Shown here: in pieces, positions 7,726 through 25,879 of the stretch
Layout of the letters: every line of letters begins with the position of its first letter
Numbering within the stretch: position 1 is the stretch's first letter
Assembly: GCA_040003345.1 (NCBI GenBank)
Contig: JBDUCR010000035.1
Coordinates: forward strand, 2,244-66,243
Source: a bacterium
GTDB lineage: Bacteria > Gemmatimonadota > Gemmatimonadetes > Gemmatimonadales > Gemmatimonadaceae
DNA length: 64,000 bases
Direction: 5' to 3'
The notes under the pieces: generated by a model
What the model was told of the DNA's origin: nothing
The model's input: the letters and a program-made list of their open reading frames with translations, nothing else
Database searches by the model: none
Translations under genes and position numbers: made by a program

Positions 7726-8967
7726 TCAGCCGTTGCGGGTCTGCAGAAAGTCGGCAAGACTCCCGAACCCGGAGCGCACGTCGTCATCACTGCCGGCAAA
7801 GGATGCGCGCACCCAGCCTTCCGTACCGAACGCGGACCCCGGCACGACGGCGACATCACACTCGTGAAGCAGCGAGAGCACGAAGTCCGCACTGGCGCCG
7901 GCCGTACGATCGCCGATCGGAAGGAAACAGTAGAACGCGCCGGCAGGCTTCACATAGTCCGGATACACGCGCGCCAACGCGCTGACGGCGAGGTCACGTC
8001 GCACTCGGAGTGCAGCAAGCATCTCGCGCTGCGCTACCTCCGCTTCAGCTTTGCTCGAGATTGCGGCGAGCGCGGCGTATTGCGAAATCGTGGTCGCATT
8101 CGATGTGATGTGCGATTGCAAACCGATCATCGCACTTGCAATCATGCGCGGCGCGATCACCCACCCGATGCGCCAACCGGTCATCGCATACGCCTTTGCT
8201 ACGCCTCCCACCGAGACGACCTCTGCGTCGGGTGCGCATGCAGCGAGAATGGAGGGTGCGTCGCCATCATATGAAAGCGGACGATAGATCTCGTCAGAGA
8301 TGATCCACCATCCACGCTCGGCAGCGAGCGCCGCAATCGCTCGCAGCTCGTCGATGTCATAGACAGCGCCGGAGGGATTCATCGGTGAGCCGAGTATGAG
8401 TCCGCGCGTGCGCGGTGTCGCGGACGCACGGAGCGAATGGACATCCACCTTCCAGCCTCGCGTGTGGTCGCCCGCAACAGCAACAGGCGTCGCACGAGCG
8501 AGGCGCACCATCTCGGCGTAACTCGGCCACGCGGGGCTCGGGATCAACACGTCGTCGCCCGGACCGAAGAGCACGAAGCACGACTCGAACAGCGCCTGCT
8601 TCGATCCGCTGGTGACGACGACCTCCGACTTGTCCACCAGTCGCCGACCCGCCGACAATTCCTGCGCCTCCGCAGCAATTGCCTCGCGCAACGCAACGAT
8701 TCCCTCCACGGCCGTATAACGCGTACGTCCTTCGGCAATCGCGCGCTCCGCCGCTTCGCTGATGAATCGCGGGGTCGCGAACGAAGGCTCGCCAATTCCC
8801 AGATCGATCACGTGACGACCGCTCGCACGCGCTGATTGCACGCGCTCCAGAATGGCAAGTGTCGCCGAGCGTGCGATGCCGTCGATGTTAGCTGAGAGTG
8901 CTGTCGTCGTGGCTGAGAACACGCGGCGCACGGAATCTGAGATTTCGTTCATATCGAGAAAGGTCAT
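7726..8967 (-). CDS. class I/II pyridoxal-phosphate aminotransferase (aspartate aminotransferase-like)
   Basis: PLP-lysine context VSVGGVAKAYAMTGWRIGW, plus the GEPSF and NPSG motifs. Confidence 0.85.
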   Translation of the reverse strand: MTFLDMNEISDSVRRVFSATTTALSANIDGIARSATLAILERVQSARASGRHVIDLGIGEPSFATPRFISEAAERAIAEGRTRYTAVEGIVALREAIAAEAQELSAGRRLVDKSEVVVTSGSKQALFESCFVLFGPGDDVLIPSPAWPSYAEMVRLARATPVAVAGDHTRGWKVDVHSLRASATPRTRGLILGSPMNPSGAVYDIDELRAIAALAAERGWWIISDEIYRPLSYDGDAPSILAACAPDAEVVSVGGVAKAYAMTGWRIGWVIAPRMIASAMIGLQSHITSNATTISQYAALAAISSKAEAEVAQREMLAALRVRRDLAVSALARVYPDYVKPAGAFYCFLPIGDRTAGASADFVLSLLHECDVAVVPGSAFGTEGWVRASFAGSDDDVRSGFGSLADFLQTRNG

Positions 8968-10972: not shown

Positions 10973-11117
10973 GGTTTGGTACGTCCCGACTGAAGCCAAG
11001 ATGCCGAGGAAGCTTGATTCCCCGGGCAATCAGAGACGTATCTCGTTTAGGGCCAGCGGCTTGACTCGCGGACGTGCCGGCGTTTGAGCACGGTGGCACG
11101 CCGTATTGCCTGTTGCC

Positions 11118-11146
11118 ATGACGTTCTCATGACGCCATTGTAGAGA
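11118..11146 (+). promoter_or_regulatory. tandem heptamer direct repeat (ATGACGT / ATGACGC, 11-nt period) plus TAGAGA -10-like hexamer upstream of STAND paralogue 1
   Basis: Heptamers at 11118-11124 and 11129-11135. TAGAGA at 11141-11146. 72 nt separate the second heptamer from the ATG at 11207. Confidence 0.5.
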
Positions 11147-11158
11147 TTGCTTTGCCGA

Positions 11159-11182
11159 CGCGCGCGACGCCGCTCGCAGTAC
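11159..11182 (+). repeat. 24-nt leader element CGCGCGCGACGCCGCTCGCAGTAC, identical copy at 17969-17992
   Basis: Exact 24/24 identity read from both loci, in the 5' leaders of paralogues 1 and 3. Confidence 0.8.
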
Positions 11183-11206
11183 GCGAACATTCGATACGCG
11201 AGTGCC

Positions 11207-14200
11207 ATGAGCGACGCCCCCCCGTCCGCTGCTCGGCTCATTGAGGATCTCGGCGTAAAGCCACGCTCCAGTCGGTCTGGGGCGGGCACCGTGCCGATCG
11301 ACCGCTCACCAATGCGCCTGCGCATCCTCGGCGAGTCCGCGATCACGATCGGCGGCAAGGATTACACGCCGTCCGGGCAACACTTCTTCGCGCTGTTGCT
11401 TCGGCTTGGCGTCGACGCTGGCCGGTACTATCAGCGCCACGAGGTTGCGAGCCTCTTCTTTCCACAGGCACCCACCGCGAGTGCTGCGCTGCACAGCGCC
11501 CGTCAGTTGATCTATCAGGCGGCGGCAAGAGGCGCACCGATCGTACGAGTCAATGGTGCTGTTGCGCTGGATCCATCGTGCGTGAGTATCGATTTCGAGG
11601 AAGCGATTCTCGAGGATCAGGCTTCTGTCGGCTCGCGGTATCGGCCTGTCGGCGTCCTGCCTGGATACGCTCCGTCGATTTCAGACGAGCTTGACGAATG
11701 GCTCGAATCATATCGCGCACAGCAACAGGCGCGGTTTAGACATGCACTCGTCGAGGCGATCAGTGTCCTCCGGCGCCGAGCCGACTGGCGTGGCGTGGAA
11801 GCGCGTGCGCGGGAGTGTCTCTCTCTGGATCCACTGAGCGAGCCAGCGACGCTCGCTCTTGCGGAGGCATTGGCGCATACGGGATCGAAGGAACTCGCAG
11901 TCGCCACTCTCGATGCATACCGCGTGGAAGTCGCGCGTCGCAACATCGATATCGCGATGCCTGCCGCTTTGCTACGCAAGAGAATTGCGAGTGGTCCATT
12001 GCGCGACCGCCCGCCGATGGAGACAGCGTTCGTTGGTCGCGGCGCGGAGATCTCTGCTCTGCACCGACAGTGGCAGCGCGCTCGTGACGGGAACCTTGAA
12101 TACACGCTGATTCGCGGCGAGCCCGGCTCCGGAAAGACGCGGCTGATGGAGGAATTTCACGGGCTCGTAAGCCTGTCAGGCGGAAGCAACATCATGTTCG
12201 TGCGGCGCGCGGCATCGGAACCGTTCCGACCATACGCGTTGTTTGCCGAGCTGGCGTCGCATCTCATGCGAATGCCGGGTGCAGCTGGATGCAATCCCGA
12301 GTTGCTCCCGTTCCTTACTCGCTTGACGCGTGCAACGTTCGCGCGGGAAACTGACCCGACGACACCTGACGAGACCGCGTTCATCAGCACTGGCATCAAG
12401 CGCGCGATCGTCGACTTGATTGAATCTGTCAGTGGTGAGAAGCCCTGCCTTATCCTGTTGGACGACAGCCGAGCGATAGATGATGTGTCTCTTGGGCTTC
12501 TTCGCGAGCTTCCTGCTCTGGCACCGACACTCAGAGTTCATCTGGCCATCACGTGTGACACGCTTGACTCGCGCGAAGACATGTTGCTTCCATCGTCAGC
12601 AACGCTATCGCTCACTCCACTCTGTGCAGAGGCATCGCAGGAACTGCTGACAGGCTTGTTGGCAAAAATGGATCGTCGTCTCGATACCGAGACTTTCGAG
12701 TGGTGCGTAAGGGTGGCCGCTGGCAATCCCGCCTTTTTATCGCTGCTTGGCGCGCATGCGGCTGAGTCGCCGGGGTTGCCGGACGTGCCGGTGGACATCA
12801 TCGAGGTCGTCGACAAACGCATCGCCGGCCTCTCGCCAATTGTGGTACGCGTACTCGCGGCGTGCGCGGTCCTGGGCGACGACGATTGCACTTCTCACTT
12901 GTTGGAGTGTGTGCTAGCAATCGAGCCGTTGGCACTTCTCGGTGCGCTGCATGAGCTGGAGCATGGCGGCTTGATCGCCTACAGTGATGAGCGCATTCAT
13001 TTGCGCAGTGCGCTCTTCCGCGATCGTGTTCTTCAGTCGACCGGCGGTTCGGTTTTGAGCCTCTTGCATGGTCGTTGCGCGGCCGCCATGGAGGCCGAAC
13101 CGGCGAGCGCCGGATGTGACTGGCGCATTGCATCTCATTGGAGGCGTGCTGGCCAGCACAATCGAGCACGAGCGACGCTGATGAATTCATGGCGCGCCAG
13201 CCTTCAGTTGGGACAACCCAAGCAAGCGGTCGCGAGCCTTCGCGAATACCTCTCCTTAACGACGGACACGGTTGAGCGCGTCACACTCCATGATGGCCTG
13301 ATTGAGCTGACGCAGGCTATGCGCGACGGGCAAGCAACGGTACAGGCGATCGACGAAAGGCAGAAGCTTGTGTGCGCCGCGCAGCTCAACGACCCTCGTC
13401 GCGAGGCGCTTTCGTTCGACCGTCTCGACGCGGTGTTTCACGACGATGGCGATCAGTCCGCATATGCCAGTGAGCTCGTCGCGTTCATGAATTCGCGTGA
13501 GCTGGACACTCATCGCAGACTATCTGCCTCGCTCGAACTCATGATCTGCGCTGATGCTAAAGTTGATCCGGTGCTGGCGGATATGGTGCTGAAGAAGTTG
13601 CTCGTTCCAGACGAGTCGGATCAAAGAGCGCGACACACTTATCACTCCATCAAACTCATCTTTCACAGCGTATTTGGAGACAAGAGTGAGGCGCTGCGAC
13701 TGAGTCGTGAACTCATTTCATCCACTGCTAGCGACTTTGGTCATTGGCCAGATGCTCGCGCAAGGTTCAGAGCCTCCATGGCGATCTTGCTTACCGGCGA
13801 CGCGAGAGCAGCGACGGATCTCCTCGAGGCTTGCTATGCGCGGTTTGCGTCAGCGGGGGCCCTCTCCACTTGCGTGGCGATTTCGGGACGGCTGGCCAAC
13901 TTCTATTTTGACGAAGGCGATTTGGACCATGCACGTGAGTGGGAACGACGAGCGGCAGCTCACGTAGCGGAGGATGTCGAGCGCATCTTGCCGTGCGAGT
14001 ATCTGAGTGTGCGTGCCGATCTAGCACTCGTAGCCGGTGACTTCGCGACAGCTCGTGGTGCCATCGCGGTAATGCGCGATGCGAATCCTCTTTACCGTGC
14101 GCCGCGATACAGCATGGATCTGCTAGCGTACGAACTTCGATTGGCGCAGTTTGAAGGCGCTCCTGTGGCTGATTCCGATGTTCAGCGGTTGCTGGATTGG

Positions 14201-14431
14201 CATTTTATCGCTCGCGGTTACACGCGACACGATGATGTCATGGACTCTCTTTGGGTGGGTTTAGTCGCGCAAGGACGCGCGTCGTACGCGAGCAGTCTGC
14301 TGCGGGAATACTTGTGCCACTTTCGTCGCGAGCCCAAGGTGTGCGCCTTCCTCCTAAGGACACGCACAGCCGGCGATCCGGCATGGCTTATGGCCGCGCC
14401 CACAGCAACTCCCACCGTTCGGTCAACGTAA
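11207..14431 (+). CDS. SARP/AfsR-like STAND regulator, paralogue 1 (wHTH - BTAD - P-loop NTPase - helical/TPR-like C-terminal region)
   Basis: The wHTH-like region HFFALLLRLGVDAGRYYQRHEVASLFF..SARQLIYQ aligns with the other two copies. BTAD-like LDPLSEPATLALAEALAHTGSKELAVATLDAYR. Walker A GEPGSGKT and Walker B ILLDDSRAIDD. About 650 aa of helical C-terminus. Start set at the ATG at 11207, analogous to copy 3; 11312 (MRLRILG) is also possible, and the ORF-track TTG at 11147 is unlikely. Confidence 0.8.
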   Translation: MSDAPPSAARLIEDLGVKPRSSRSGAGTVPIDRSPMRLRILGESAITIGGKDYTPSGQHFFALLLRLGVDAGRYYQRHEVASLFFPQAPTASAALHSARQLIYQAAARGAPIVRVNGAVALDPSCVSIDFEEAILEDQASVGSRYRPVGVLPGYAPSISDELDEWLESYRAQQQARFRHALVEAISVLRRRADWRGVEARARECLSLDPLSEPATLALAEALAHTGSKELAVATLDAYRVEVARRNIDIAMPAALLRKRIASGPLRDRPPMETAFVGRGAEISALHRQWQRARDGNLEYTLIRGEPGSGKTRLMEEFHGLVSLSGGSNIMFVRRAASEPFRPYALFAELASHLMRMPGAAGCNPELLPFLTRLTRATFARETDPTTPDETAFISTGIKRAIVDLIESVSGEKPCLILLDDSRAIDDVSLGLLRELPALAPTLRVHLAITCDTLDSREDMLLPSSATLSLTPLCAEASQELLTGLLAKMDRRLDTETFEWCVRVAAGNPAFLSLLGAHAAESPGLPDVPVDIIEVVDKRIAGLSPIVVRVLAACAVLGDDDCTSHLLECVLAIEPLALLGALHELEHGGLIAYSDERIHLRSALFRDRVLQSTGGSVLSLLHGRCAAAMEAEPASAGCDWRIASHWRRAGQHNRARATLMNSWRASLQLGQPKQAVASLREYLSLTTDTVERVTLHDGLIELTQAMRDGQATVQAIDERQKLVCAAQLNDPRREALSFDRLDAVFHDDGDQSAYASELVAFMNSRELDTHRRLSASLELMICADAKVDPVLADMVLKKLLVPDESDQRARHTYHSIKLIFHSVFGDKSEALRLSRELISSTASDFGHWPDARARFRASMAILLTGDARAATDLLEACYARFASAGALSTCVAISGRLANFYFDEGDLDHAREWERRAAAHVAEDVERILPCEYLSVRADLALVAGDFATARGAIAVMRDANPLYRAPRYSMDLLAYELRLAQFEGAPVADSDVQRLLDWHFIARGYTRHDDVMDSLWVGLVAQGRASYASSLLREYLCHFRREPKVCAFLLRTRTAGDPAWLMAAPTATPTVRST

Positions 14432-14571
14432 GCTGACATCGCCTACGCACTTGCGTTTCGCCTTACCCTTATTCGTCGGTTCTCACCGAGCGTTGCCCCT
14501 TGCATGGCAGGCCCCCTTCAGCTGCGCCAGCGATCTAGCCACGAGGGGCGTCTATCGACATGCCGATACCG

Positions 14572-14602
14572 ATGACGCGCCAGTGACGCTCTCCCCAATA
14601 CT
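14572..14602 (+). promoter_or_regulatory. tandem heptamer direct repeat (ATGACGC / GTGACGC, 11-nt period) plus AATACT -10-like hexamer upstream of STAND paralogue 2
   Basis: Heptamers at 14572-14578 and 14583-14589. AATACT at 14597-14602. 68 nt to the ATG at 14657. Confidence 0.5.
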
Positions 14603-14656
14603 CGGTGCAGGCTCGGCGGCGCCCCCCACTTTCCTCGATCGCCAGGACGAGAGAGC

Positions 14657-17600
14657 ATGAGCAAAGTCCACCTTTCCATTCTCGGCGATTGTATCATCGA
14701 TGTCGATGGCACCCAGGTGACTCCGGCTGCGCCGCACCTCTTCGCGCTGCTGCTCATCCTTGCGCTGGAGCGAGAGCGGAAGGTATGCCGATCCGAGCTC
14801 CAGATCCTTCTCTTCGAGCAAGGCATCGACGCGCGCCAGGCATCTCACAATTTGCGACAGCTGCTGTACCGTCTTCGCCGCATGGGCCTACAAATCGACG
14901 ACGGCCCGTCCGGCATGAGCCTCACGAATGTAGAAGTGCTTCCGCCGATGCATTGCTTGGAAGGGAAGAGCATCGAGGAGCGCGCTGTCGTCACGCGCGA
15001 ATCGCTACAGGCACTGCCGTCGTATACGCCCCGCCTTTCGAAGCCCTTCGCGGAGTGGATCGAGCAGGCAACAGAGCGGATCAACGACGGCGTTCGGAGC
15101 TTGTTGCTATCGGATCTACGAGCGTTGCGATCGTCGCGCGCGTGGCTTCACACCTCCCGCCTGGCCGCAACTCTTCTTCTGTTCGACCCTTTGAACGAAG
15201 AGGCAGTGATTGCCAGAGCGGAAGCGCTCGCGATGCTTGGCGATCGCGATTCCGCGCTCGACGCACTTGATGCGTACATGCGCGAAGCAGATGGTGGGTC
15301 TCAGAACACGCGCGAAGTACGATCACTCCGGGCGAGAATAGCCCGACGATCGCCTAGCGGGGCCGCCGAGCTTCTTCTTGGTCGGACGACGGCGCTCGAA
15401 GGACTTGAGTCCGAATGGAACAGGGCGCAGTCGGGCGGCGGCGCCCGACTGCATGTCATCATCGGCGCTCCAGGCATCGGAAAGACGCGTCTTCTACAGG
15501 AGTTTTCCGCCACCATCGGCTTGCGGCGAGCTCACGTCATTCATCATCGCTGCGATAGCCAATCGCGCGCATATCCCCTCTCGCTGTTCTCGCAGATTCT
15601 GCCGAACCTGCGCGCCATGCGCGGAAGCTTAGGTGCATCGCCGCAATACACGCAGACGCTTGATTTGCTTCGACCCTCGCTCGATTCATCTCAAACTGCA
15701 ATTCCGGAGGGGCTCTCAATCGAAGCGGTCCGCGCCGAGGTTCAGTTCGCGTTGGTGGATCTCATGGAGGCAGTGAGCTGTGAGCAGCCGATTCTTCTTG
15801 CAGTGGATGACGCGCATCTTCTCGATGACGCCTCCGTCTCGATGCTGCGCGTGCTGAGCACGTCCGCAAATGCCGCGGAGCTCTTGATCGTCGCCTGCAG
15901 TCGACCCTCCTCCGGTCCGGCGTCGCTTCTCGAGCGCGGACAGCGCGCCACTTCTCAACTTCTTTCTCCGTTGAACGCGAGTGACTCGCGAGCCTTGCTG
16001 CTCGCGCTTGCAACGACTCCGGATGCGAATCGCGACGACTTCGAATGGTGTCTCGCTCAATCCGGCGGGAACCCGTTCTACATTCACGCGCTGGCCAAGC
16101 ACGACCTCAAGCCGCCGACATTGGATTCGGTTCCGTTTGACCTTCACTCACTTGCATCCTCCTCGTACTTCGCGCTGCGCTCGCCGGCGCGTTTGGTGCT
16201 CGAGTCCTGTCTCGTACTCGGCCTCCACGCTACGATAGGTCGCGTCGGGCTCGTTTCCGGATTGGATGAGCTGGAGCTGGTGTCAGCCCTTCGCGAGCTC
16301 GAAGAGCAGGATCTCATCCGTTTCGGAGATGACAGAATCTTGGGCCCGCATTCGCTCCTTCACGATGCGCTTCGTGGGTTCGTCCCTACAACTGTGCGTG
16401 CGTTGTTGAACAAGCGTGGTGCACAAGCACTCGCCGAAGAGTGCATGGAGCGCGAATACTCCACGTCATTGGCCCTCGCCGCGGCGGATTGCTGGATCGC
16501 CGCTGGTGACGTTCTCACCGCCCTTGGTCTCCTTAGACGTTGCGCCTCCGAGGCTGCGTCAATCGGTGAGCCTGCGGCTGCCGCCGAGCTTCTCAGTCGC
16601 ATGGTTCACGCATCACTCCCGCTGACAGAGCGACGCTCGCTGTTGGACGACATCGTCAGATACGCTAGTACGGGCGGTTCCCCTCAGCTTGCGGCAGACT
16701 CATTGCGGGAGCGCTTGGCGGTTGCGCGCGCTTTGAACGAGCCATCGACGTCGACCCAAGAGCTCGAGTTCCGTATCATTGAAACGGACATGCAGAACGA
16801 AGTAGAACAGGTGGATGCCGTTGATCCGCTTCTGTCACTCCTCAATCACACTCTCTCGAGCCCCGGTCTTCGTGATCGAATACTGGTCCGCCTAATGATG
16901 ATTGCCGACGGTGAATTCGACGTGACTCTCGCCAAGTCACTTTACGAACAGTCGCTGACGCACGACGACATCAACGCGACTCGGTCGGCGAGTAAGCTTA
17001 TAGCACTTTTAGTCTACCATACGACATTTGGCAGCCGTGATCGTGCATGCGCTCTCGCCGACGAGCTGCTCGCTCGCTATCCCGTTGCCTCGCTGGATGA
17101 GCTCTCTTTGAGAGCCCGTTACAATGCGCTTTTTGCGCTTTACAGGTTGCGTCGCACTGACACGTTATGCGCGATCCTCGAAGCAGAATATCGATTCATG
17201 GCCACTCACGACATCCGCTCCGCCGCGCTACATGCTGCATCACTTCTCATGGAGGTCACGATCTCAGTTGGCGACATGGCCGCCGCAGTGCATTGGCTTG
17301 CCGCGTCGGAGGAGCTCTTATGCGGCGCCACAGTGCATAAGCTCGCGCCCCACAGCGGGCATAATTCGTCCGCTGCGCTGCTAGCAACGTTGGATGGACA
17401 CTTCGAAGTGGCGGAAAAGTTCAACGCGCTCTTGCGCGATGAATCCCGAATGAAGTCGGCTCGCTTCGAGGCGATTTGTCTTTCGTTGCGACTGCGTGTA
17501 TTTGCGTTACAAGGCTCCGTGGACGATCACAAGGAGCTTTCGCTCCGACTGAGGGATTTGTATGAGCGTGGTCGACGTCTTGGTGGACAAGACGTGATCG

Positions 17601-17800
17601 TCGAAGTGCTGTGGCGAATCGAAGCTTTGGCTGGCAATCATGCCGCCGCATCCCAAATGCTGAGTGAATATCTCAGTGATCATCGTCGGGAGCTTGGCCC
17701 GCCTGAGTGGCTTTTGCGGGTCACCACCTCGGCAGATGCCGCGTGGAAAGTATCAAAAATGGGGCAAGACCGCCGAGCGGACACGTCGACTGCGGCGTGA
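14657..17800 (+). CDS. SARP/AfsR-like STAND regulator, paralogue 2
   Basis: wHTH-like HLFALLLILALERERKVCRSELQILLF...QASHNLRQLLYRLRRMG. BTAD-like FDPLNEEAVIARAEALAMLGDRDSALDALDAYM. Walker A GAPGIGKT (about nt 15464-15487) and Walker B ILLAVDDAHLLDD. Long helical C-terminus with the conserved block GGQDVIVEVLW...YLSDHRRE. Confidence 0.85.
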   Translation: MSKVHLSILGDCIIDVDGTQVTPAAPHLFALLLILALERERKVCRSELQILLFEQGIDARQASHNLRQLLYRLRRMGLQIDDGPSGMSLTNVEVLPPMHCLEGKSIEERAVVTRESLQALPSYTPRLSKPFAEWIEQATERINDGVRSLLLSDLRALRSSRAWLHTSRLAATLLLFDPLNEEAVIARAEALAMLGDRDSALDALDAYMREADGGSQNTREVRSLRARIARRSPSGAAELLLGRTTALEGLESEWNRAQSGGGARLHVIIGAPGIGKTRLLQEFSATIGLRRAHVIHHRCDSQSRAYPLSLFSQILPNLRAMRGSLGASPQYTQTLDLLRPSLDSSQTAIPEGLSIEAVRAEVQFALVDLMEAVSCEQPILLAVDDAHLLDDASVSMLRVLSTSANAAELLIVACSRPSSGPASLLERGQRATSQLLSPLNASDSRALLLALATTPDANRDDFEWCLAQSGGNPFYIHALAKHDLKPPTLDSVPFDLHSLASSSYFALRSPARLVLESCLVLGLHATIGRVGLVSGLDELELVSALRELEEQDLIRFGDDRILGPHSLLHDALRGFVPTTVRALLNKRGAQALAEECMEREYSTSLALAAADCWIAAGDVLTALGLLRRCASEAASIGEPAAAAELLSRMVHASLPLTERRSLLDDIVRYASTGGSPQLAADSLRERLAVARALNEPSTSTQELEFRIIETDMQNEVEQVDAVDPLLSLLNHTLSSPGLRDRILVRLMMIADGEFDVTLAKSLYEQSLTHDDINATRSASKLIALLVYHTTFGSRDRACALADELLARYPVASLDELSLRARYNALFALYRLRRTDTLCAILEAEYRFMATHDIRSAALHAASLLMEVTISVGDMAAAVHWLAASEELLCGATVHKLAPHSGHNSSAALLATLDGHFEVAEKFNALLRDESRMKSARFEAICLSLRLRVFALQGSVDDHKELSLRLRDLYERGRRLGGQDVIVEVLWRIEALAGNHAAASQMLSEYLSDHRRELGPPEWLLRVTTSADAAWKVSKMGQDRRADTSTAA

Positions 17801-17931
17801 GGGTCGGCGTGCACTTCGTACTCGCGCTGAATCGTAGTGACCTCGCATTTCGACACTTCGGCCCGCTAGCAATTGGCTTGTGTTCGTACGATAGCGCTCA
17901 CTACAGGTCGTGGCCGGACTGCTCCTTGCCG

Positions 17932-17960
17932 ATGACGCTCAAATGACGCCATAGTAGAGA
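17932..17960 (+). promoter_or_regulatory. tandem heptamer direct repeat (ATGACGC / ATGACGC, 11-nt period) plus TAGAGA -10-like hexamer upstream of STAND paralogue 3
   Basis: Heptamers at 17932-17938 and 17943-17949. TAGAGA at 17955-17960. 59 nt to the ATG at 18008. Confidence 0.5.
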
Positions 17961-17968
17961 CTGCTACT

Positions 17969-17992
17969 CGCGCGCGACGCCGCTCGCAGTAC
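17969..17992 (+). repeat. second copy of the 24-nt leader element CGCGCGCGACGCCGCTCGCAGTAC
   Basis: Identical to 11159-11182. Confidence 0.8.
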
Positions 17993-18007
17993 CGCGCACC
18001 GCGAAAC

Positions 18008-21000
18008 ATGAGAAGCATGACGTACATCCGTCTTTCGATCGTCGGAGACTGTCGCATCGACGTTGATGGCGTCGCGATCACGCCGGCGTCGCCGCATCTG
18101 TTCGCGGTACTACTCATCCTCGCCGGTCGGCGAGAGGGGCAGCTCAGCCGGAACGACCTTCAGAAGCTGCTGTTCGAACCGAACGTGGCTCCGGAACAAG
18201 CATCTCACAATCTGCGGCAATTGCTGTATCGCGTCCGCCGCTTAGGAATCCGAGTCGATGAAGGCTCGTCCGGACTTTCGCTCGCCGACGTTCACGTTTG
18301 TGATCCGCTGCAGGAGACTATCGATCTCGGCGCACCGGGCCGCGCGCGGCAATCACCAGCGGCATATCGCGTTTTGCCGATATACGCTCCGCGCTTGCCG
18401 AAGTCATTTGCACACTGGGTCGACGACTTCGCGGATTGCCTGAATGGCCAACTCCGCAGCCTGTTACTCGAGGATCTCGAGCAGGCCCGCGCATCGCATT
18501 CGTGGGCGGACGCACTGACACTCTGCGACTCTCTCACGCACATCGATCCGTGCAATGCCGTCCTTCTTCGTTCGAGGGCGGAGGCGCTGGCGATGCTTGG
18601 ACGCAGGCGCGATGCACTCGCGGTGCTGGATCAGTTTCTCCAAGAGAACACGGATGACGATTGCGCGGTCAAAGCAGCGCGCGTGCTTCGTACACGCATC
18701 GAGAAATCTCCATCGCTCAAACGTGTCACCCCCCTAAAGGCGCGCGCCACGTCTCTCGCATTTCTCGATCACGAGTGGGCGAAGGCCACCACGGAAGGGG
18801 CGAGCTTGAGCGCGATAGTCGGCCAAGCTGGAATAGGCAAAACACGATTGTCCGAGGAGCACGCGGCGCGTGTCTCGTTAGCCGGAGGTCGCGTAATTCG
18901 ATATGTGTGCGATAGTCAGTCGAAGACACAGCCACTTTCCTTGTTTTCTCAGATATTAGCTGAACTCTGTTCCGCTCGTGGCAGCCTTGGAGCCTCTCCG
19001 GAACATGCACGAGCACTCGCACGACTCCGCACAGAGGCTCAAACACTGACCGAAGGCTGTGTGGAGAGTACTTCGATTGAAATCCGTAGAGCAGAGATTC
19101 AATATGCTCTTATCGATTTGATCGAGGCTGTCAGTGCGGAACGATCGCTGTTGCTTTTGATTGATGACGCTCACTACCTCGACGAGGCATCGCGTTCCGT
19201 TATCCGCGGGCTTGTCAACAATAGCGATGCCCGAGCGCAGGTTCTCGTTTGCCTTCGCCCTTCGTCGAACAACTCCTCGCTGCTTGCCGCGACGACTAAA
19301 ACGGCGATCCACGAACTATGTCCGCTGTCGGCGGCAGACAGCCGTGATCTTGTCACGCTTCTGCAGGGTGGCATCATCCCGGACGAGGAGCACGTGACCT
19401 GGTGCGTGGAACAGTCGGCTGGCAATCCGTTCTTCCTGCACGCGCTTGCGCTTCATCGAGGGAGCACGTCCACCAGTATTCCATTCCGTATCCAGTCTCA
19501 CGCAGCGAGCTCGTATTCGTCTCTTGCGGAGGCGAGCCGTAGCGTGCTCGAGGCCTGCTTGCTTCTCGCTCGGTTTGCGACCCTGGATCGCACGCGCGCG
19601 GTTGTCGGCATCGATAACGCCTGCCTTCTCTCAGCCTTTCGAGAGCTCGAGGAATACGGGCTCATTGAGTTTCGACAGGGCAGGCTCTACGGCCCACACG
19701 CGCTCATACACGACGCGTTGCTGGATTTGATCCCCACGTCGGTCGCGGCGCTTCATCATCGACGAATTGCGGAACTGCTTGAGCAGGAGTGTGTTGCAGA
19801 GCAATACGATTCTTTACTGGCATGGTCGTGCGCTCAGAGCTGGCTTGCCGCTGGGAATCCAGTTGCTGCCACTCGACTTATGCGTCGATGCGCCAGTCAG
19901 GCCGCCGCTCTCGGGGAGCCGTCGGCAGCAGCTGGATTTCTTCTTCAGCTTCTCACCTCAGCGGTGCCGTCGTCACTGAAGGGTGAGTTACTGGATGACA
20001 TCATCCACTATGCGCAGGTTGGAGGGGCCTTTCAAATATCCGCTTCGGCGCTCAGAGACAGGCTTCAGCTCGCAATCGAGCGCGGTGAGAGCGAAGGCGA
20101 TCGCAAGTCAATACAATTTCAAGTAATCGAAGCCGATCTTCTCAACGGCGCGCCAGTAGCCAGCACTCTTGCGTCCCTCATGGACCTTCTACACGACCTC
20201 TCGGCGCCGGTCTCGATCCGCACGAGGGCTGGCGTTCGATTGATTGTGATAGCCGACCTGAATTACGATGCAGTTTTGGCGAACAGCGTGTATTCCGTTC
20301 TACGTACGATCGGCATCAGCGACCTTCAACAATCGTCACATCTAACGCGCGCCGAACTGGTTTATCACGTCACGTTTGGTGACCCTGCGCGCGCACGCTT
20401 ACTCGCGGCAACACTGCTGTCGGCGTTTCCTGAACCTGACGTGCTTGAATGCGCAACCCGTGCTCGCACCTATGCGGCTTTCGCGTATTATCGAATGCGT
20501 GAAACGTCCAAGTCCCGCGAGCTCTGCGAAGCTGAGTATGCGTTCATGAAGGCGAGTGGAGCGTTCCAGTCCGCACTGTATGCTGCATCGTTGCTAACAG
20601 AAATTGCCATTACCGATGGTGACTTCGTGTCAGCGACCAAGTGGCTCGAGACCGAGAACGCTGGCTATGGAGTCGTATCGCAGCGCCCGCACTCACCTAG
20701 CCTTTGCTATTGCGCCAACGCGGCGGAACTCGCGATGATGCGAGGTGCCTTTGATGAGGCTGAGCGATTTGTTGCCCCACTCGCTGGTAACTCGTTGCTG
20801 TCCGCTCCGCGATTGAAAGCGGTATCGCTGGCATTGCTGATTCGATTGCAACAGCGTCGCGCCGAGACGAAGGTCGCAGGCGCCGACGTCGCGCTGCTTT
20901 TCGATTTGTATCAGAAAGGATGCGATTTGGGAGGCCAGGATGCCGTCGTTGAGGCGCTGTGGTGCTGTGAGATCATCACTGGCAACGCGACGGGAGCTTC

Positions 21001-21259
21001 ACGGCTTCTTCGGGACTATCTCGCAAATCATCGTCGCGAACGAGGACGCCCGGACTGGTCATTGAGACACACTACGGCTGCGGATGATGCGTGGGTCGAA
21101 TTCATTCCTGCATTGCCAAAGGTCGTGCGGGGCAGTGATAGACGATCTTCTGACCGGGCGTATTCCCGAGCCGCCTATGCTGCGCTCAACAGTGAGCGCG
21201 CCAACAGCGACGCAGCGAAGGCATCACATCCGCTTCCTGACAGGCTGGTCTTAGGATAG
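18008..21259 (+). CDS. SARP/AfsR-like STAND regulator, paralogue 3
   Basis: wHTH-like HLFAVLLILAGRREGQLSRNDLQKLLF...QASHNLRQLLYRVRRLG. BTAD-like IDPCNAVLLRSRAEALAMLGRRRDALAVLDQF. Walker A GQAGIGKT and Walker B LLLLIDDAHYLDE. C-terminal block GGQDAVVEALW...YLANHRRE, plus an extra ~70-aa tail. Confidence 0.85.
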   Translation: MRSMTYIRLSIVGDCRIDVDGVAITPASPHLFAVLLILAGRREGQLSRNDLQKLLFEPNVAPEQASHNLRQLLYRVRRLGIRVDEGSSGLSLADVHVCDPLQETIDLGAPGRARQSPAAYRVLPIYAPRLPKSFAHWVDDFADCLNGQLRSLLLEDLEQARASHSWADALTLCDSLTHIDPCNAVLLRSRAEALAMLGRRRDALAVLDQFLQENTDDDCAVKAARVLRTRIEKSPSLKRVTPLKARATSLAFLDHEWAKATTEGASLSAIVGQAGIGKTRLSEEHAARVSLAGGRVIRYVCDSQSKTQPLSLFSQILAELCSARGSLGASPEHARALARLRTEAQTLTEGCVESTSIEIRRAEIQYALIDLIEAVSAERSLLLLIDDAHYLDEASRSVIRGLVNNSDARAQVLVCLRPSSNNSSLLAATTKTAIHELCPLSAADSRDLVTLLQGGIIPDEEHVTWCVEQSAGNPFFLHALALHRGSTSTSIPFRIQSHAASSYSSLAEASRSVLEACLLLARFATLDRTRAVVGIDNACLLSAFRELEEYGLIEFRQGRLYGPHALIHDALLDLIPTSVAALHHRRIAELLEQECVAEQYDSLLAWSCAQSWLAAGNPVAATRLMRRCASQAAALGEPSAAAGFLLQLLTSAVPSSLKGELLDDIIHYAQVGGAFQISASALRDRLQLAIERGESEGDRKSIQFQVIEADLLNGAPVASTLASLMDLLHDLSAPVSIRTRAGVRLIVIADLNYDAVLANSVYSVLRTIGISDLQQSSHLTRAELVYHVTFGDPARARLLAATLLSAFPEPDVLECATRARTYAAFAYYRMRETSKSRELCEAEYAFMKASGAFQSALYAASLLTEIAITDGDFVSATKWLETENAGYGVVSQRPHSPSLCYCANAAELAMMRGAFDEAERFVAPLAGNSLLSAPRLKAVSLALLIRLQQRRAETKVAGADVALLFDLYQKGCDLGGQDAVVEALWCCEIITGNATGASRLLRDYLANHRRERGRPDWSLRHTTAADDAWVEFIPALPKVVRGSDRRSSDRAYSRAAYAALNSERANSDAAKASHPLPDRLVLG

Positions 21260-21319: not shown

Positions 21320-22645
21320 TCAGCGCGGCGCTCCGACTGTCATCAACCGTAGTTTGCTGACGCGAGAGGTGGCACGATCGGCCGGCGGAAAAAGCCAGCC
21401 CCAAAAGTCGCTGGCTAACAACTGATCAGCGATCTGTGGATCAAACTGCCTTCCGCGACACCGAATGATTTCGGCGCGAACGACATCTTCGCCAAGAGAG
21501 CCGCGATACGGTCGCTCGGTTGTCATCGCGTCGAAAGTGTCGGCGAACATGATGATTCGCGATGCGATTGGAATGGCTTCTTGTTTCAAGCCCCTTGGGT
21601 AACCCGTCCCGTCCCAATTCTCGTGATGGTGACGCACCGCGGGAACCAATTCCCGAAGGCGCGTCATTGTTGCGATAAGCTGCGCGCCATCCTCTGGATG
21701 TTCTTTGATGACAGCCCACTCCTCAGGAGTTAAGCGTTCTTCTTTCGCTAAGATGGGCGCGTATTTGTCGTATATCTTCCCGACGTCATGCAAGAGCGCA
21801 GCAGTTCCTATTTTCTCAACCTCAGTAGCCGGCAAGCCAAGCAGGCGGGCGATCTTGATCGCGTATTCCTTGACTCTCCTCGAATGACCGGAGGTGTAGG
21901 GATCGCGTGCCTCGATCGATTTGACCATCAGTTCGAGCAACTCCTTATTCGTCTGAGCCAGCTCGAGATTCGCCGTATTCATCTGCCGAATTCCGAGAAT
22001 TGGCAACCAGAGCAAAGACGCAAACAGCGGACCGAACCGGGAGTACACCCAAGCGAATGCAAAAACCACGGGCAGCGCCATAATGTCGAGACCAACCGTT
22101 GACGCATTGTTCTCGCGCCAGACATGCATCGTCCGCGCGTTTGTGGAAAGCGCGATTACATGGCTCACTTGCAGCGTGTTCATGATAAAAACGACCGCGT
22201 ACGCAATAACGAGCGGGACGCCGACGAGTAGAGTTATCGCGTAAACCGATAACTCTTGAAGTCCGAAAAGGCTTACTCCTCCGAGCGTGCGATATACGAT
22301 AATCCCGAGCGAATAGCTCAGGATGATTTCACTACAGTTGAAGATGATCTTAAGCGGCTCCTTTTTTTTTGTAGTCTCCGAAATCACATGGGCTGCGCCG
22401 ATCGCCGCGAGCGCCGCGAAATTGGGCACCAACATCAGCGTCGTTAGGTAGGGAATAAATGAAATCGAACCTGATGCACCAGCCGGAAGCAGGAAACCCA
22501 TCAACTCTGCCGTAAGGGCGAGAAGTGATAAGGTCACTATTGTTCCTAGATTGAAGTCCGCAGCCGGAGGTGCGACGCGCCAGACCACGACGCACGCACC
22601 AATCGCTAGAGCGCAAATCAATTGTATGAATGACTTTGCTTTCAT
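21320..22645 (-). CDS. multi-TM HD-GYP domain protein (predicted cyclic-di-GMP phosphodiesterase)
   Basis: About 230-aa N-terminal region with 7-8 hydrophobic helices, then HSRRVKEYA, ALLHDVGKIY and HHENWDGTGYPRGL (HD and GYP signatures). Visibly lower G+C than the flanks. Confidence 0.85.
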   Translation of the reverse strand: MKAKSFIQLICALAIGACVVVWRVAPPAADFNLGTIVTLSLLALTAELMGFLLPAGASGSISFIPYLTTLMLVPNFAALAAIGAAHVISETTKKKEPLKIIFNCSEIILSYSLGIIVYRTLGGVSLFGLQELSVYAITLLVGVPLVIAYAVVFIMNTLQVSHVIALSTNARTMHVWRENNASTVGLDIMALPVVFAFAWVYSRFGPLFASLLWLPILGIRQMNTANLELAQTNKELLELMVKSIEARDPYTSGHSRRVKEYAIKIARLLGLPATEVEKIGTAALLHDVGKIYDKYAPILAKEERLTPEEWAVIKEHPEDGAQLIATMTRLRELVPAVRHHHENWDGTGYPRGLKQEAIPIASRIIMFADTFDAMTTERPYRGSLGEDVVRAEIIRCRGRQFDPQIADQLLASDFWGWLFPPADRATSRVSKLRLMTVGAPR

Positions 22646-22895
22646 GTGAGCAGGTACAGATAAAGTTGGTTGCGACCGCCCTTTTGCCGCTCACTCGTTC
22701 ATCAATTCCACGCGTTCGTACCGGCGAAACAGAACGAGAAAAACGCACTTAGAAACTTTGACATACGCGTCACCCCCTCTCCAAGAAAGCCGTGGATTGT
22801 CCACGTCAGTCCAGATTGTTGGCTCCGCTCGTATTCTTAAAGTTTCGCTCCGCTAACTACCGCTCTAGCAAAAGGGTCGGCCCGCACCAATACCA

Positions 22896-23678
22896 TCACA
22901 ACTCCACCCACCGATTCGTTGCATCCAACACCGCCAACACACTGGCAGTCTCTATCCCATCCTTGATCTCCGCACTCCCCGTCAGCAGCGCCGATTCACG
23001 CCCAAATCGCGTCGTCAGCGCAACGAAGACGAACTGACGCTCGAAAGCGTCAATCAGCTTTGCGCCCTCGAAGACGAGCGAACGTCCCTCGGTATCAGCC
23101 TGCTGCACCGCGACAACCGCAGCCTTAGCCGCCGTCTCCGTCCGCAGCCGATCGCTCTCGAGCCCCGTCGCCTCGCCAACGAACACGGCGTCGCCCTGAC
23201 GCACCGTTACGCGACAGCTCATGCCGCTCGCACGCGAGCGTTTGACCTCGACATCCTCGAAGTACAAACGACGCTTCCTCGACATCGGCTCCTGCAAATC
23301 CTCCGGGATCGTCACGAGCGTTCCGATCGGCGGCGTCATCCGCGCCGCACGAATCGCCTCGGCCGCTGGACCCTCGCTCGTCGCCACCGAAATCTTCTTG
23401 TGGCTCACGCGCATGCCAAGCTGCGCCAGCAGCGCGCTCTCGACGTTGCGCACGGTCTGCTTCGGCGACACGGACGTCGTCGTCAGAACATGCACCTCGG
23501 AGACCTCGCCGGACTCGCCGGGAATGATCCGTACATTCAGGACCCCGGGCAACGTAGCCAGCAGCTCTTCAGCTCGCGCGATCGGTAAAACGGTCCCCGC
23601 GATGGAGGACACGTCACCAATGGCGCGCGCCGGCGCTGAGGCGGGGGCGTTGGAGGGCTTCGCCGACACCGTCAACAA
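22896..23678 (-). CDS. hypothetical protein downstream of the sigma54 activator
   Basis: 260-aa ORF in the same orientation as mogA and the activator, with good third-position GC. TTG start is uncertain. No recognisable motif. Confidence 0.45.
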   Translation of the reverse strand: MLTVSAKPSNAPASAPARAIGDVSSIAGTVLPIARAEELLATLPGVLNVRIIPGESGEVSEVHVLTTTSVSPKQTVRNVESALLAQLGMRVSHKKISVATSEGPAAEAIRAARMTPPIGTLVTIPEDLQEPMSRKRRLYFEDVEVKRSRASGMSCRVTVRQGDAVFVGEATGLESDRLRTETAAKAAVVAVQQADTEGRSLVFEGAKLIDAFERQFVFVALTTRFGRESALLTGSAEIKDGIETASVLAVLDATNRWVEL

Positions 23679-23819: not shown

Positions 23820-25388
23820 CTAGTCAAGAGAATACTCATGTTCGGGCAACCGGTACTCCTTGATCTTCCTGTACAGCGTCCGCTCTCCGATCCCAAGCAA
23901 GTCCGCCGCACGCCTGCGATTTCCCCGCGTCTCCTTCAAAGCCGCTTCTATTACCGCACGCTCCACTTCCGTCATTTTTGTGCCCGGAATCACAGTAACG
24001 ACGTTCGGAGGGGGTGTTTCGTCACGAGGACCAATCGCCGCCACTCCAACACCCGTTCCACCAGGTGCAACGACCTCACCTATAAAACCACTACGGCCGC
24101 CCGTGATCGAACTGGAACCCCGATCATCATCCATCCGCCGCCGTAATTCCTCCATCTGCAGCTTCAGCTCGAGCAGACTCCTGAGGATGAACTCGAGCTC
24201 CCGACCTTCCGCCTGACCCGACGCGCGACTGATCGGACCCACCCGCACCGGCAGAAACCTGGCACTGCCGCCGTCGCGGATCTGCCGCGGAAGGTCCTCC
24301 GGCCCGATCTCCCGCCCATGTGAGAGCACGACCATACTCTCCACGAGATTCCGCAGCTCACGCACATTCCCCGGCCACGGATACTGCATCAGCATCTCCA
24401 TCGCCTCAGCAGAAATGCCGGGAAAGGGGCGATCGTGCTGCGCCGACAAGTCGCGGATGAACCGCCGGACCAGCAGCGGAATGTCCTCGGGCCGAGCACG
24501 GAGTGGCGGTAGATAGATGCTCAGGACATTCAGTCGATAGTACAGATCCGACCGGAAGCTCCCTTCCTCCACGTGCTCCCGCAGTGGACGATTGGTCGCG
24601 GCAATCACGCGCACGTTCACGTTGATGGACTGCACGCCGCCCACACGGGTGAACTCACGCTCCTCGAGCACGCGCAGGAGTTTCACCTGCGTGGACTGAG
24701 GAATTTCGCCGATCTCGTCGAGAAAGAGCGTCCCACCATCCGCCAGCTCAAAGCGCCCAAGCCGCCGTTCGGCCGCGCCGGTGAACGCGCCCTTCTCATG
24801 ACCGAATAGCTCGCTCTCGAGCAGGGTCTCGGGCAACGCACCCACGTTCACGGCGATGAACGGTTTGTTGCGCCGAGGGCCAAGTGCGGCCAGCGCGCGT
24901 GCGACGAGCTCCTTGCCCGTACCACTCTCTCCCTCGACGAGCACCGTGCTACTCACGGGCGCCATCTGCTCGACCTTGACCATCACTTCGCGCAGCGGCT
25001 CGCTCTCGCCTATGAGACCAGTCGTCTCCTGGAGCGCATGACGCTCCATCAGGCGGCGCACCCCAAGCGCGACGTCGTCCACGACGATCGGCTTCGAGAA
25101 CAGCTCGACGTAGCCGAGCGTGCGGAGGCGTTCGCGCTGCAGCGCGTCGTCGCCGCCCATGAGGCCAACCACGGGTGTGCCCTCCCACAGCATCTCACGC
25201 ACGAGCGTGAGATTCGCCGGATCGGTCAGCTCCGCACTGAGCACAATGAGCTGCGGCTTCGCCCGCTTGATCTCGGCGCGCATGTCATCGAGTGGACTGA
25301 CGACGGCGGTCTCGACGCCATCGGCTTCGAGGCGCGCATTGAGCCGGACCGCGGGCTCGACGTCATGAAGCGTGATGAGGACGCTCAT
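23820..25388 (-). CDS. sigma54-dependent enhancer-binding protein (NtrC/Fis family) with degenerate receiver domain
   Basis: Start at the ATG at 25388 (MSVLITLHD), which overlaps the mogA stop as ATGA. AAA+ Walker A GESGTGKE, the sigma54-contact loop GAFTGA, and a C-terminal Fis-type HTH (AADLLGIGERTLYRKIKEY). In the receiver-like N-terminus the acceptor position reads LIVLSAEL (Ser instead of Asp). Confidence 0.9.
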   Translation of the reverse strand: MSVLITLHDVEPAVRLNARLEADGVETAVVSPLDDMRAEIKRAKPQLIVLSAELTDPANLTLVREMLWEGTPVVGLMGGDDALQRERLRTLGYVELFSKPIVVDDVALGVRRLMERHALQETTGLIGESEPLREVMVKVEQMAPVSSTVLVEGESGTGKELVARALAALGPRRNKPFIAVNVGALPETLLESELFGHEKGAFTGAAERRLGRFELADGGTLFLDEIGEIPQSTQVKLLRVLEEREFTRVGGVQSINVNVRVIAATNRPLREHVEEGSFRSDLYYRLNVLSIYLPPLRARPEDIPLLVRRFIRDLSAQHDRPFPGISAEAMEMLMQYPWPGNVRELRNLVESMVVLSHGREIGPEDLPRQIRDGGSARFLPVRVGPISRASGQAEGRELEFILRSLLELKLQMEELRRRMDDDRGSSSITGGRSGFIGEVVAPGGTGVGVAAIGPRDETPPPNVVTVIPGTKMTEVERAVIEAALKETRGNRRRAADLLGIGERTLYRKIKEYRLPEHEYSLD

Positions 25389-25879
25389 GCGCCGGCTCCA
25401 GCGTGATCGGTGACCGCGCCGCGGAGAATATCGACGGCGTGCCCGATGATCGGCTGTACTGCGTCGAGCGACTCGCGCACTCCGGAGGTGGAGCCCGGAA
25501 GGTTTATGATGAGTGTACGATTGCGTACACCAGCGATTCCCCGCCCCAGTGCCGCCCGGGGAAAGTTGGCGCCGGTGACCGTTCGAATGCGTTCGGCAAT
25601 GCCAGGTACTTCGCGCTCGATCACCGCCTTCGTCGCCTCCGGAGTGACATCGCGCGCGCTCAGTCCGGTGCCGCCTGTCGTTAACACGACGTCCGCGACA
25701 TCGGCGTCGCACCAGGAGATGAGCTGCCGCACGATCGCGACAGTGTCGTCAGCGACGAGCGCACGCGCAGCGACCGTCGCCGACTGTGCTTCGGCCCACG
25801 CGGCAGCCGAGTCGCCGCTGGTATCGGCGCGCTCGCCGCGAGCTCCGGCGTCGGAGATGGTAAGGACTGCGATTCTCAA
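25385..25879 (-). CDS. mogA: MogA/MoaB-family molybdenum cofactor biosynthesis protein
   Basis: IAVLTISD, the VVLTTGGTGLSARDVTPEA motif and INLPGS. Confidence 0.85.
   Translation of the reverse strand: MRIAVLTISDAGARGERADTSGDSAAAWAEAQSATVAARALVADDTVAIVRQLISWCDADVADVVLTTGGTGLSARDVTPEATKAVIEREVPGIAERIRTVTGANFPRAALGRGIAGVRNRTLIINLPGSTSGVRESLDAVQPIIGHAVDILRGAVTDHAGAGA

Follow-up and report, generated by a model that had tools for sequence, protein, structure and literature searches.

Three predicted SARP-type STAND regulators in tandem, each behind an operator-like direct repeat, in a genome of the Gemmatimonadota

The SARP-LAL proteins of Streptomyces, among them PimR, SanG, PolR and FilR, are large regulators of about 1,000-1,100 aa with an N-terminal SARP module, made of an OmpR-type winged helix-turn-helix (wHTH) and a BTAD domain. 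They carry a central LAL/MalT-type (AAA_16) ATP-binding region rather than an NB-ARC domain, have no LuxR-type HTH, and bind sites of two or three heptamers in an 11-bp register, which overlap the -35 element in the case of SanG and PolR (PMC10972967). Here we describe a tandem array of three long genes, designated A, B and C, in a 64-kb stretch of DNA (hereafter the window; contig JBDUCR010000035.1 of assembly GCA_040003345.1) from a bacterium of the Gemmatimonadaceae. Their predicted products are remote members of this already known class of large SARPs, and a conserved direct repeat stands upstream of each gene.

Several other described proteins share parts of this layout. MalT of Escherichia coli (1hz4, 8bob) has an AAA_16-type nucleotide-binding oligomerization domain (NOD), together with a C-terminal LuxR-type HTH; it is an ATP- and ligand-dependent switch that binds repeated asymmetric boxes. 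EmbR of Mycobacterium tuberculosis (2fez) joins a wHTH and BTAD to a C-terminal FHA domain and has neither an NTPase nor a TPR sensor, while the RRNPP peptide-sensing regulators, encoded next to the gene of their cognate small secreted peptide, couple an HTH to a TPR receptor, likewise with no NTPase. AfsR of Streptomyces coelicolor (8k60, 8hvr) is arranged in the order SARP, NOD, arm and TPR, its NOD being an NB-ARC domain with an F/Y-HD switch motif. It is phosphorylated by AfsK and acts on a separate small gene, afsS; its target, the afs box, consists of two 11-bp direct repeats of which the upstream unit overlaps the -35 element (PMC10936776). SARP sites in general are direct repeats of heptamers, spaced in an 11-bp or 22-bp register and located at or across the -35 element.

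Set against the published description of PimR and SanG (PMC10972967), A, B and C have the SARP-LAL type of architecture, with similar length and order of domains, and the repeat ahead of their genes, a putative binding site, has a similar heptamer register. They differ from the SARP-LAL proteins in belonging to the Gemmatimonadota and not the Actinomycetota, in having no biosynthetic cluster, and in a SARP module too divergent for Pfam to detect; the putative operator heptamer, TGACGC(C), is also different and precedes the regulator's own gene, at a fixed locus holding one to three tandem copies. With AfsR they share the fold of the SARP module, the order of domains, the form of the putative target site and an ectopic location, although no equivalent of afsS or AfsK was seen at the array. 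Unlike MalT, they carry their DNA-binding module at the N-terminus, and unlike EmbR and the RRNPP regulators they possess an NTPase. New here are the phylum, the divergence beyond Pfam detection, the sequence of the self-operator, and the fixed, fast-evolving locus of variable copy number beside a cyclic di-GMP (c-di-GMP) phosphodiesterase gene. Our literature search found no paper connecting SARPs with Gemmatimonadota.

Architecture and family of the three proteins

The open reading frame (ORF) list of the window contains three long ORFs of about 1,040-1,090 aa on the forward strand: STAND regulators A (11207..14431), B (14657..17800, 1047 aa) and C (18008..21259, 1083 aa, with a family-aligned start at ATG 18017). 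Copy A, the most divergent, lies in an ORF (11147-14431) that opens at TTG 11147 and has an in-frame ATG at 11207; its family-aligned N-terminus, 'MRLRILGE', begins at 11309 and gives a protein of 1040 aa. The database gene call for this copy (P0121) is only 804 aa long, 77% of the 1040-aa query, and is thus short of some 240 N-terminal residues. In the translations the Walker A motif reads GEPGSGKT in A, GAPGIGKT in B and GQAGIGKT in C, and the Walker A, Walker B (hhhhDD) and GNPF (GxP) motifs are intact in all three. The recognition-helix block QASHNLRQLLYRLRR is found in B and C and in the degenerate form ALHSARQLIYQAAAR in A, and the C-terminal block LGGQD..VE.LW....YL..HRRE, complete in B and C, is partial in A. 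The original prediction, made from the letters of the window and its ORF translations, had described three giant same-strand paralogues here, and every motif that it quoted was recovered, some in degenerate or partial form in A.

That prediction also proposed a SARP-like N-terminus, a STAND NTPase and a helical repeat sensor. Models and profiles indicate that all three proteins are composed of a SARP module (OmpR-type wHTH and BTAD), a STAND NTPase of the AAA_16/MalT type, an arm of helices and a TPR/SUPR sensor resembling that of MalT. The central region is recognized directly by Pfam, in which AAA_16 scores above threshold in A, B and C (E 1e-14 to 1e-18; 1.2e-16 in A and 1.7e-14 in C), as does AAA_22, while the same scan gave no match to NB-ARC at E <= 0.01 and none to the GerE/LuxR HTH. 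For the N-terminal module, Pfam returned no Trans_reg_C match in any copy; BTAD scored 16-17 bits in A and C, below its gathering score of 22.1, and had no match in B. The sole NCBIfam match was a partial one, to a kinase-cyclase fusion in its ATPase/TPR region. Searches of PDB sequences with B (phmmer) or with the N-terminal profile (hmmsearch) found TPR-like matches only and neither AfsR nor EmbR.

Wider sampling and more sensitive methods gave a different outcome. When 27 N-termini of the family were scanned singly, BTAD was detected in 5 (best E 1.4e-5) and Trans_reg_C in 3. Aligned by hhalign with proteins carrying Trans_reg_C, BTAD, AAA_16 and TPR domains, the N-terminal family profile matched at 99.3% (E 1.7e-20, 231 columns) and the full-length profile at 100% (E 1.7e-70, 969 columns). 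The full-length AlphaFold2 model of B, built with 85 family sequences, has a mean predicted local distance difference test (pLDDT) score of 91.9 and a predicted template-modelling (TM) score of 0.85, and it divides into a wHTH (residues ~1-97), a BTAD domain (~98-235), a P-loop nucleotide-binding domain (~236-440), a helical and winged-helix region (~441-600), and an arm with TPR/SUPR repeats (~600-1047). Its N-terminus is modelled as a beta-sheet, three helices and a beta-hairpin wing, as in OmpR-type winged helices, followed by an all-helical domain. A full-length Foldseek search with this model placed the STAND-TPR protein 6mfv and MalT (8bob) first, and then SAMD9, Apaf-1, CED-4 and NLRs; AfsR was not seen there, as the NOD and TPR regions dominate, and the N-terminal region was hence modelled separately. 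Residues 1-238 alone reached a pLDDT of 93.6, and Foldseek returned six strong PDB matches, all of them AfsR (8k60, 8hvr; TM 0.66-0.68) or EmbR (2fez, TM 0.67; 2ff4) within an overall TM range of 0.65-0.68. After these the E-value rises by two orders of magnitude, to TPR-only matches with E >= 0.01. Both the hhalign and the Foldseek alignments span the whole module of residues 1-238. The sensor is matched to MalT by profile as well as by fold (family profile against MalT domain III, 1hz4, E 9e-13).

Because Trans_reg_C and BTAD are absent or sub-threshold in Pfam, it is profile-profile and fold evidence alone that confirms the wHTH and BTAD, and annotation by sequence models alone would wrongly reject the SARP assignment. 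The original prediction had treated failure to match wHTH/BTAD models as grounds for abandoning it; that failure did occur in Pfam, and the assignment was rescued by profile alignments and fold models. By this evidence the three proteins have the wHTH followed by BTAD that is structurally characteristic of SARPs, while actinomycete origin and control of a biosynthetic cluster, which they do not show, are habits of SARPs rather than structural criteria. The STAND features, namely a P-loop nucleotide-binding domain, hhhhDD, a GxP helical domain, a winged helix and C-terminal repeats, are all present, the exception being a missing sensor arginine in A. As to the kind of STAND protein, the prediction had invoked AfsR and MalT together. 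The MalT (LAL, AAA_16) type of NTPase stands, and the NB-ARC type of AfsR does not: the family conserves a 'GPH' motif (H565), and the HD at residues 569-570 of B and C is found neither in A nor in the family consensus. The proteins are therefore not AfsR-type in the NB-ARC sense.

B and C are 42% identical, and A is 26% identical to B and about 26% to C. A search with B retrieved about 93 full-length relatives of 1,015-1,080 aa, followed by a sharp step in E-value from 1e-40 to 1e-18, and copy A belongs to its own clade with about 12 relatives at 44-53% identity. All named sources of relatives are Gemmatimonadota metagenome-assembled genomes or soil metagenomes, and in a pattern-seeded scan of GTDB representative genomes, made with an alignment of 18 family sequences, the only assemblies with full-length relatives were nine from Gemmatimonadota. 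In databases these proteins go under the names 'AAA family ATPase' or 'hypothetical'. A neighbour-joining tree groups B and C into sister clades and puts A into a third clade that branches deeper; since each clade has relatives of its own, the three paralogue lineages are old, and a recent triplication is ruled out.

A direct repeat ahead of each gene

The pattern TGACG-N6-TGACG has exactly three matches in the window (at 11119, 14573 and 17933), one upstream of each copy, against an expected count of 0.47 and with none of 100 shuffles reaching three. This supports the earlier proposal of a SARP-style operator before each gene. The element of copy A (11119..11147) reads TGACGT-tctca-TGACGCC-attg-TAGAGAT, in which a -10-like hexamer comes after two direct repeats of 11 bp; that of copy B (14573..14590) reads TGACGC-gccag-TGACGCT, and that of copy C (17933..17961) TGACGC-tcaaa-TGACGCC-atag-TAGAGAC, all on the forward strand. 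In 19 related loci covering 391 kb (referred to below by L numbers where needed), the exact repeat occurs 22 times; 21 of these matches precede a STAND gene at a distance of up to about 190 bp, in most cases 55-90 bp. The repeat is kept upstream of STAND genes even in relatives of 27-30% identity with different upstream neighbours.

The consensus, ttGCGa-TGACGC-nnnAr-TGACGC(C), is a tandem direct repeat in an 11-bp register, a geometry that agrees with the published rules for SARP sites and the afs box (PMC10936776; PMC10972967). In about half of the sites a -10-like TAnnnn hexamer (TAGAGA, TACAAA, TATAAA or TAGGAT) follows 4 nt past the second heptamer. If this hexamer is the -10 element, the upstream repeat is placed 16 nt from it, at the -35 position, and the downstream repeat fills the spacer. 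Generic scans of the array for sigma-70 promoters and terminators gave nothing above shuffled sequence. Within the proteins, the recognition helix is the best conserved segment of the family, with R67 and Q68 invariant and H64, L66, L70 and Y71 nearly so. From the parallel conservation of helix and repeat we infer that each protein, as a head-to-tail dimer, binds the promoter of its own gene, and a DNA code common to A, B and C would make mutual cross-regulation possible.

The resemblance between promoters extends beyond the repeat. The operator and leader of C, about 80 bp, are much closer to the region upstream of A than the coding regions of A and C are to each other, which, with proteins only about 26% identical, suggests either gene conversion of the promoter or a conserved element of the 5'-untranslated region. 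A nearly identical stretch, CGCGCGCGACGCCGCTCGCAGTAC, is shared by the leaders of A (11148-11190) and C (17962-17992); a close version is found in L015 (~7940-7975), and looser versions with GCGCGACG in L005 and L003. The sole strong site outside STAND promoters, in L008 (8035-8050, reverse strand), falls at the stop codon and 3' end of an L-PSP (RidA-like) gene; it may belong to a small transcript that is not annotated and is controlled by STAND proteins, or be due to chance.

A variable locus beside a phosphodiesterase gene

Upstream of the array lie, in order, genes for a MoxR ATPase, a MASE2 histidine kinase and an aminotransferase, a weakly alpha/beta-hydrolase-like ORF and an ORF of unknown type. 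Downstream, on the opposite strand and convergent with the array, are a MASE9-HD-GYP c-di-GMP phosphodiesterase gene (21320..22645; Pfam HD_5, HD and MASE9, with HDxGK and GYP motifs in the translation), the gene for a 260-aa protein that we call u260 (22896..23678), a sigma-54 enhancer-binding protein (EBP) gene (23820..25712; Pfam Sigma54_activat E 1e-69, HTH_8) and GcvT. The immediate neighbours are those given by the original prediction, a lipase-like and a second ORF on one side and an HD-GYP gene on the other. That prediction also portrayed the array as a self-contained triple module, and here it did not hold: the position of the array, convergent with MASE9-HD-GYP, u260 and the sigma-54 activator, is conserved in about 40 independent contigs. 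HD-GYP adjoins the STAND gene in 18 of the 19 non-redundant STAND-seeded loci (L019, which ends inside the STAND gene, is uninformative), including L007, L008 and L010, whose STAND proteins are relatives at 27-30% identity and whose upstream neighbours are entirely different. The sole separated pair is in L001, where DDE_3, IS21-type (IstB) and rve transposase genes (13223-17251) stand between the two.

An independent metagenomic sample seeded on u260 agrees with this, HD-GYP being next to u260 in 22 of the 23 contigs with room for it, and a STAND gene following HD-GYP in 20 of 22; among the remainder, L096 is too short at this end to be informative, and in L058 the gene after u260 is NirB. 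In L056, a TPR-GGDEF diguanylate cyclase gene (11778-13253, reverse strand) is convergent with HD-GYP at the STAND position. Copy number varies: informative loci carry one STAND gene in 14 cases and two in 6, and three are found in this window alone, which disposes of the triple array as a conserved unit. Where arrays are mixed, the order is always A-type, B-type, C-type (the window, L051, L006 and L014). No biosynthetic genes were found around the array of the window or in the roughly 40 related contigs, in keeping with the earlier observation. The expectation behind it, that large SARPs normally lie beside such clusters, proved a weak premise: in a phylogenomic survey 58% of AfsR-like proteins were found to be ectopic, meaning outside a cluster (bioRxiv 10.64898/2026.09.02.748808), and the same is true of AfsR, so that absence of a cluster is not in itself unusual. 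With Rfam, nothing between 10 and 26 kb was matched at E <= 1, and a search for sigma-54 promoters upstream of the HD-GYP, u260 and EBP genes, and at the 'TTGC' before the operator, found no consistent GG-N10-GC.

Similarity of DNA to the closest genomes, L015 and L005, collapses between 10976 and 22898, an interval that takes in the array, the 5' (MASE9, membrane-sensor) half of the phosphodiesterase gene and a micro-ORF described below, while the flanks stay at 70-86%. Within it, similarity to L015 is kept only at the operator and leader of C (17930-17991), the NTPase core and the HD domain, the first being the sole non-coding island within the array. At the protein level, the flanking proteins are 83-94% identical to those of L005 and L015, compared with 39-56% per domain for the best STAND match and 39-40% for the MASE9 half. 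Across loci, identities are about 22-61% for STAND domains, 35-64% for MASE9 and 55-86% for the HD-GYP catalytic half, against 76-94% for MoxR, 59-92% for the EBP and 53-88% for u260. The GC content of the interval is also lower, at 0.57-0.60 as against 0.62-0.645. The array and the sensor half of HD-GYP are thus a hypervariable island within a conserved backbone, a pattern compatible with diversifying selection or allelic replacement. The latter is suggested by the fact that the genomes closest by their flanks, L005 and L015, have the most divergent HD-GYP sensor.

Between u260 and HD-GYP, just upstream of the latter, lies a micro-ORF encoding MSKFLSAFFSFCFAGTNAWN (22702..22764, reverse strand) behind a very strong Shine-Dalgarno sequence, with the extended form GGAGGTGACGC. 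An ORF of 17-26 codons, hydrophobic and ending in W-x-stop, follows the ribosome-binding sequence GGAGGTGAC in 14 of 15 loci (L016 read by eye); in L018 a GTG start gave a different peptide. Equivalent ORFs are present in L001, L003-L005, L007-L010 and L013-L017, with peptides such as MISFLVGFFSFCFTGTQTWN in L003, MDSLLAWIFSAISFAGLNGWG in L001 and MLALMIKVCSFGFAVWS in L005. Upstream of the micro-ORF, as far as about 22860, are two to three AGCGGAGC boxes, with GAGCGGAGCC once in the window (22821-22830), and a hairpin whose stem covaries between loci and has no Rfam match. About 80 nt downstream of the L-PSP site in L008, a GAGCGGAGCGGAG box with a strong GC hairpin is reminiscent of this element. 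The peptide might serve as a leader or cause translational arrest, might be a small partner in the membrane, or might be the precursor of a signalling peptide. Its type goes with the type of MASE9 in the HD-GYP gene downstream and bears no relation to the STAND clade present; the micro-ORF is about 1.5 kb from the array, beyond HD-GYP, neither adjacent to nor co-oriented with the STAND genes, and we treat it as context only.

The u260 protein itself has no Pfam, NCBIfam or PADLOC match. Its alignment has a mean column identity of 70%, with invariant residues that include PKxxVRNVESAL, GMRVxHxKISVAT, FEDVE and LLTGS, and it has more than 500 relatives in soil metagenomes; the gene has a sigma-70-like promoter of its own, TTGACTAG...TAAATATTCTTAAG. 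Like the EBP, it is a constant neighbour.

Possible modes of action and implications

We favor, with a probability of about 0.7, the interpretation that A, B and C are ATP- and ligand-gated activators of the SARP type, a divergent Gemmatimonadota subfamily of large, SARP-LAL-like regulators that control their own genes and one another's. In such a model, the C-terminal helical repeat domain would keep the protein autoinhibited until a ligand or partner binds, and ATP binding at the NOD would release or oligomerise it. Two SARP modules would then bind the TGACGC-N5-TGACGC(C) repeats head to tail, with the upstream repeat at the -35 position and the -10-like TAnnnn 4 nt past the downstream heptamer, as AfsR does at afsS, and RNA polymerase would be recruited, giving activation rather than repression. 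With an operator before each gene and a conserved recognition helix (H64, R67, Q68, Y71), the copies are probably parallel sensors with a shared DNA code that regulate themselves and each other, and there are probably further targets elsewhere in the genome. The sequences and models themselves show fold, family relationship, conservation of the cis-element, synteny and varying copy number; binding of that element, activation as opposed to repression, the ATP switch, cross-regulation and the kind of signal are what the model proposes.

Several observations weigh against this interpretation. Copy A lacks the near-invariant sensor arginine (R416 of B) and several basic residues of the recognition helix, and it may be a functionally shifted paralogue that behaves differently from B and C. 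The downstream heptamer is 4 nt from the putative -10 element, as opposed to the 8 bp usual in SARPs, AfsR included. The repeat is missing from L052 and from the second STAND copies of L014 and L015, the latter abutting the first copy. A position weight matrix scan of the window and related loci yielded no further sites and none before neighbouring genes; leaving aside the match in L008, it identified no target besides the STAND genes themselves. As far as sequence goes, the repeat could also be the site of another OmpR-type regulator.

If so, the TGACGC repeats would be bound by, for example, an OmpR-family response regulator, and the STAND proteins would act on unrelated targets. Direct repeats spaced at 11 bp are typical of all OmpR/PhoB-type winged-helix proteins and not of SARPs alone, two-component genes lie near some of the loci, and binding of the repeat by the STAND proteins is itself deduced from sequence comparison. 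However, regardless of the genes upstream, the repeat accompanies the STAND gene in all lineages and is duplicated with each tandem copy, and the helix expected to read it is conserved more than any other part of the family, which matches the conservation of the repeat; we accordingly consider a foreign regulator improbable. Far less credible is a role for A, B and C as antiviral sensors of the Avs or NLR kind, duplicated and diversified in an arms race with phages. The STAND fold does match Apaf-1, CED-4, plant NLRs and an Avs5 structure in Foldseek, the copies vary in number in tandem, and they diverge much faster than their flanks. Yet the N-terminal domain is predicted to be a DNA-binding SARP module and not the nuclease, protease, SIR2 or TIR effector of such systems, and PADLOC matched neither A nor C, and B only through a 15-bit P-loop hit. 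The array also occupies a fixed position in the core genome rather than a defence island and has a conserved self-operator, and mobile-element genes are found near it in one relative only, L001.

The linkage to HD-GYP raises a further alternative, that the array, the polymorphic MASE9-HD-GYP and the micro-ORF together make up a single signalling cassette that varies between strains, much like a pherotype locus, and in which the TPR/SUPR sensors read a signal from the neighbouring genes (the micropeptide or a c-di-GMP-linked cue) and changes in copy number alter the sensor repertoire. The convergent pairing in both samples of loci, even with different upstream neighbours, speaks for it, as do a collapse of similarity that spans exactly these three components, the much greater divergence of STAND domains and MASE9 than of MoxR, the EBP and u260, and a micro-ORF in nearly all loci whose type follows that of MASE9. 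The convergent orientation, on the other hand, precludes a single operon, and plain synteny accounts for the linkage, given that GcvT and a MoCF gene are found next door just as constantly. Moreover, the micropeptide type is unrelated to the STAND clade, no STAND operator precedes the HD-GYP, micro-ORF, u260 or EBP genes, and the linkage is broken in L056 and L058. We regard such a cassette as unlikely. The related idea that these parts are one hypervariable cassette set in a conserved backbone, where a strain-specific cue (perhaps the micropeptide or a signal linked to c-di-GMP) is coupled to transcription by STAND sensors, one to three in number, that are interchangeable and share a DNA code, is in our estimate doubtful to a similar degree; if true, it would mean a pherotype-like, strain-specific system in Gemmatimonadota built on NLR-type transcription factors.

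With A, B and C the large-SARP class, in its SARP-LAL-like form, extends well outside the Actinomycetota and away from antibiotic clusters, and the DNA-binding module of an entire lineage is seen to escape annotation at the level of Pfam. The phylogenetically footprinted operator TGACGC-N5-TGACGC makes a bacterial transcription switch of the NLR type testable in a poorly studied soil phylum. As a fast-evolving regulator array of variable copy number, at a fixed chromosomal address beside a polymorphic c-di-GMP phosphodiesterase, the locus also provides a lead on strain-level signalling diversity in Gemmatimonadota.

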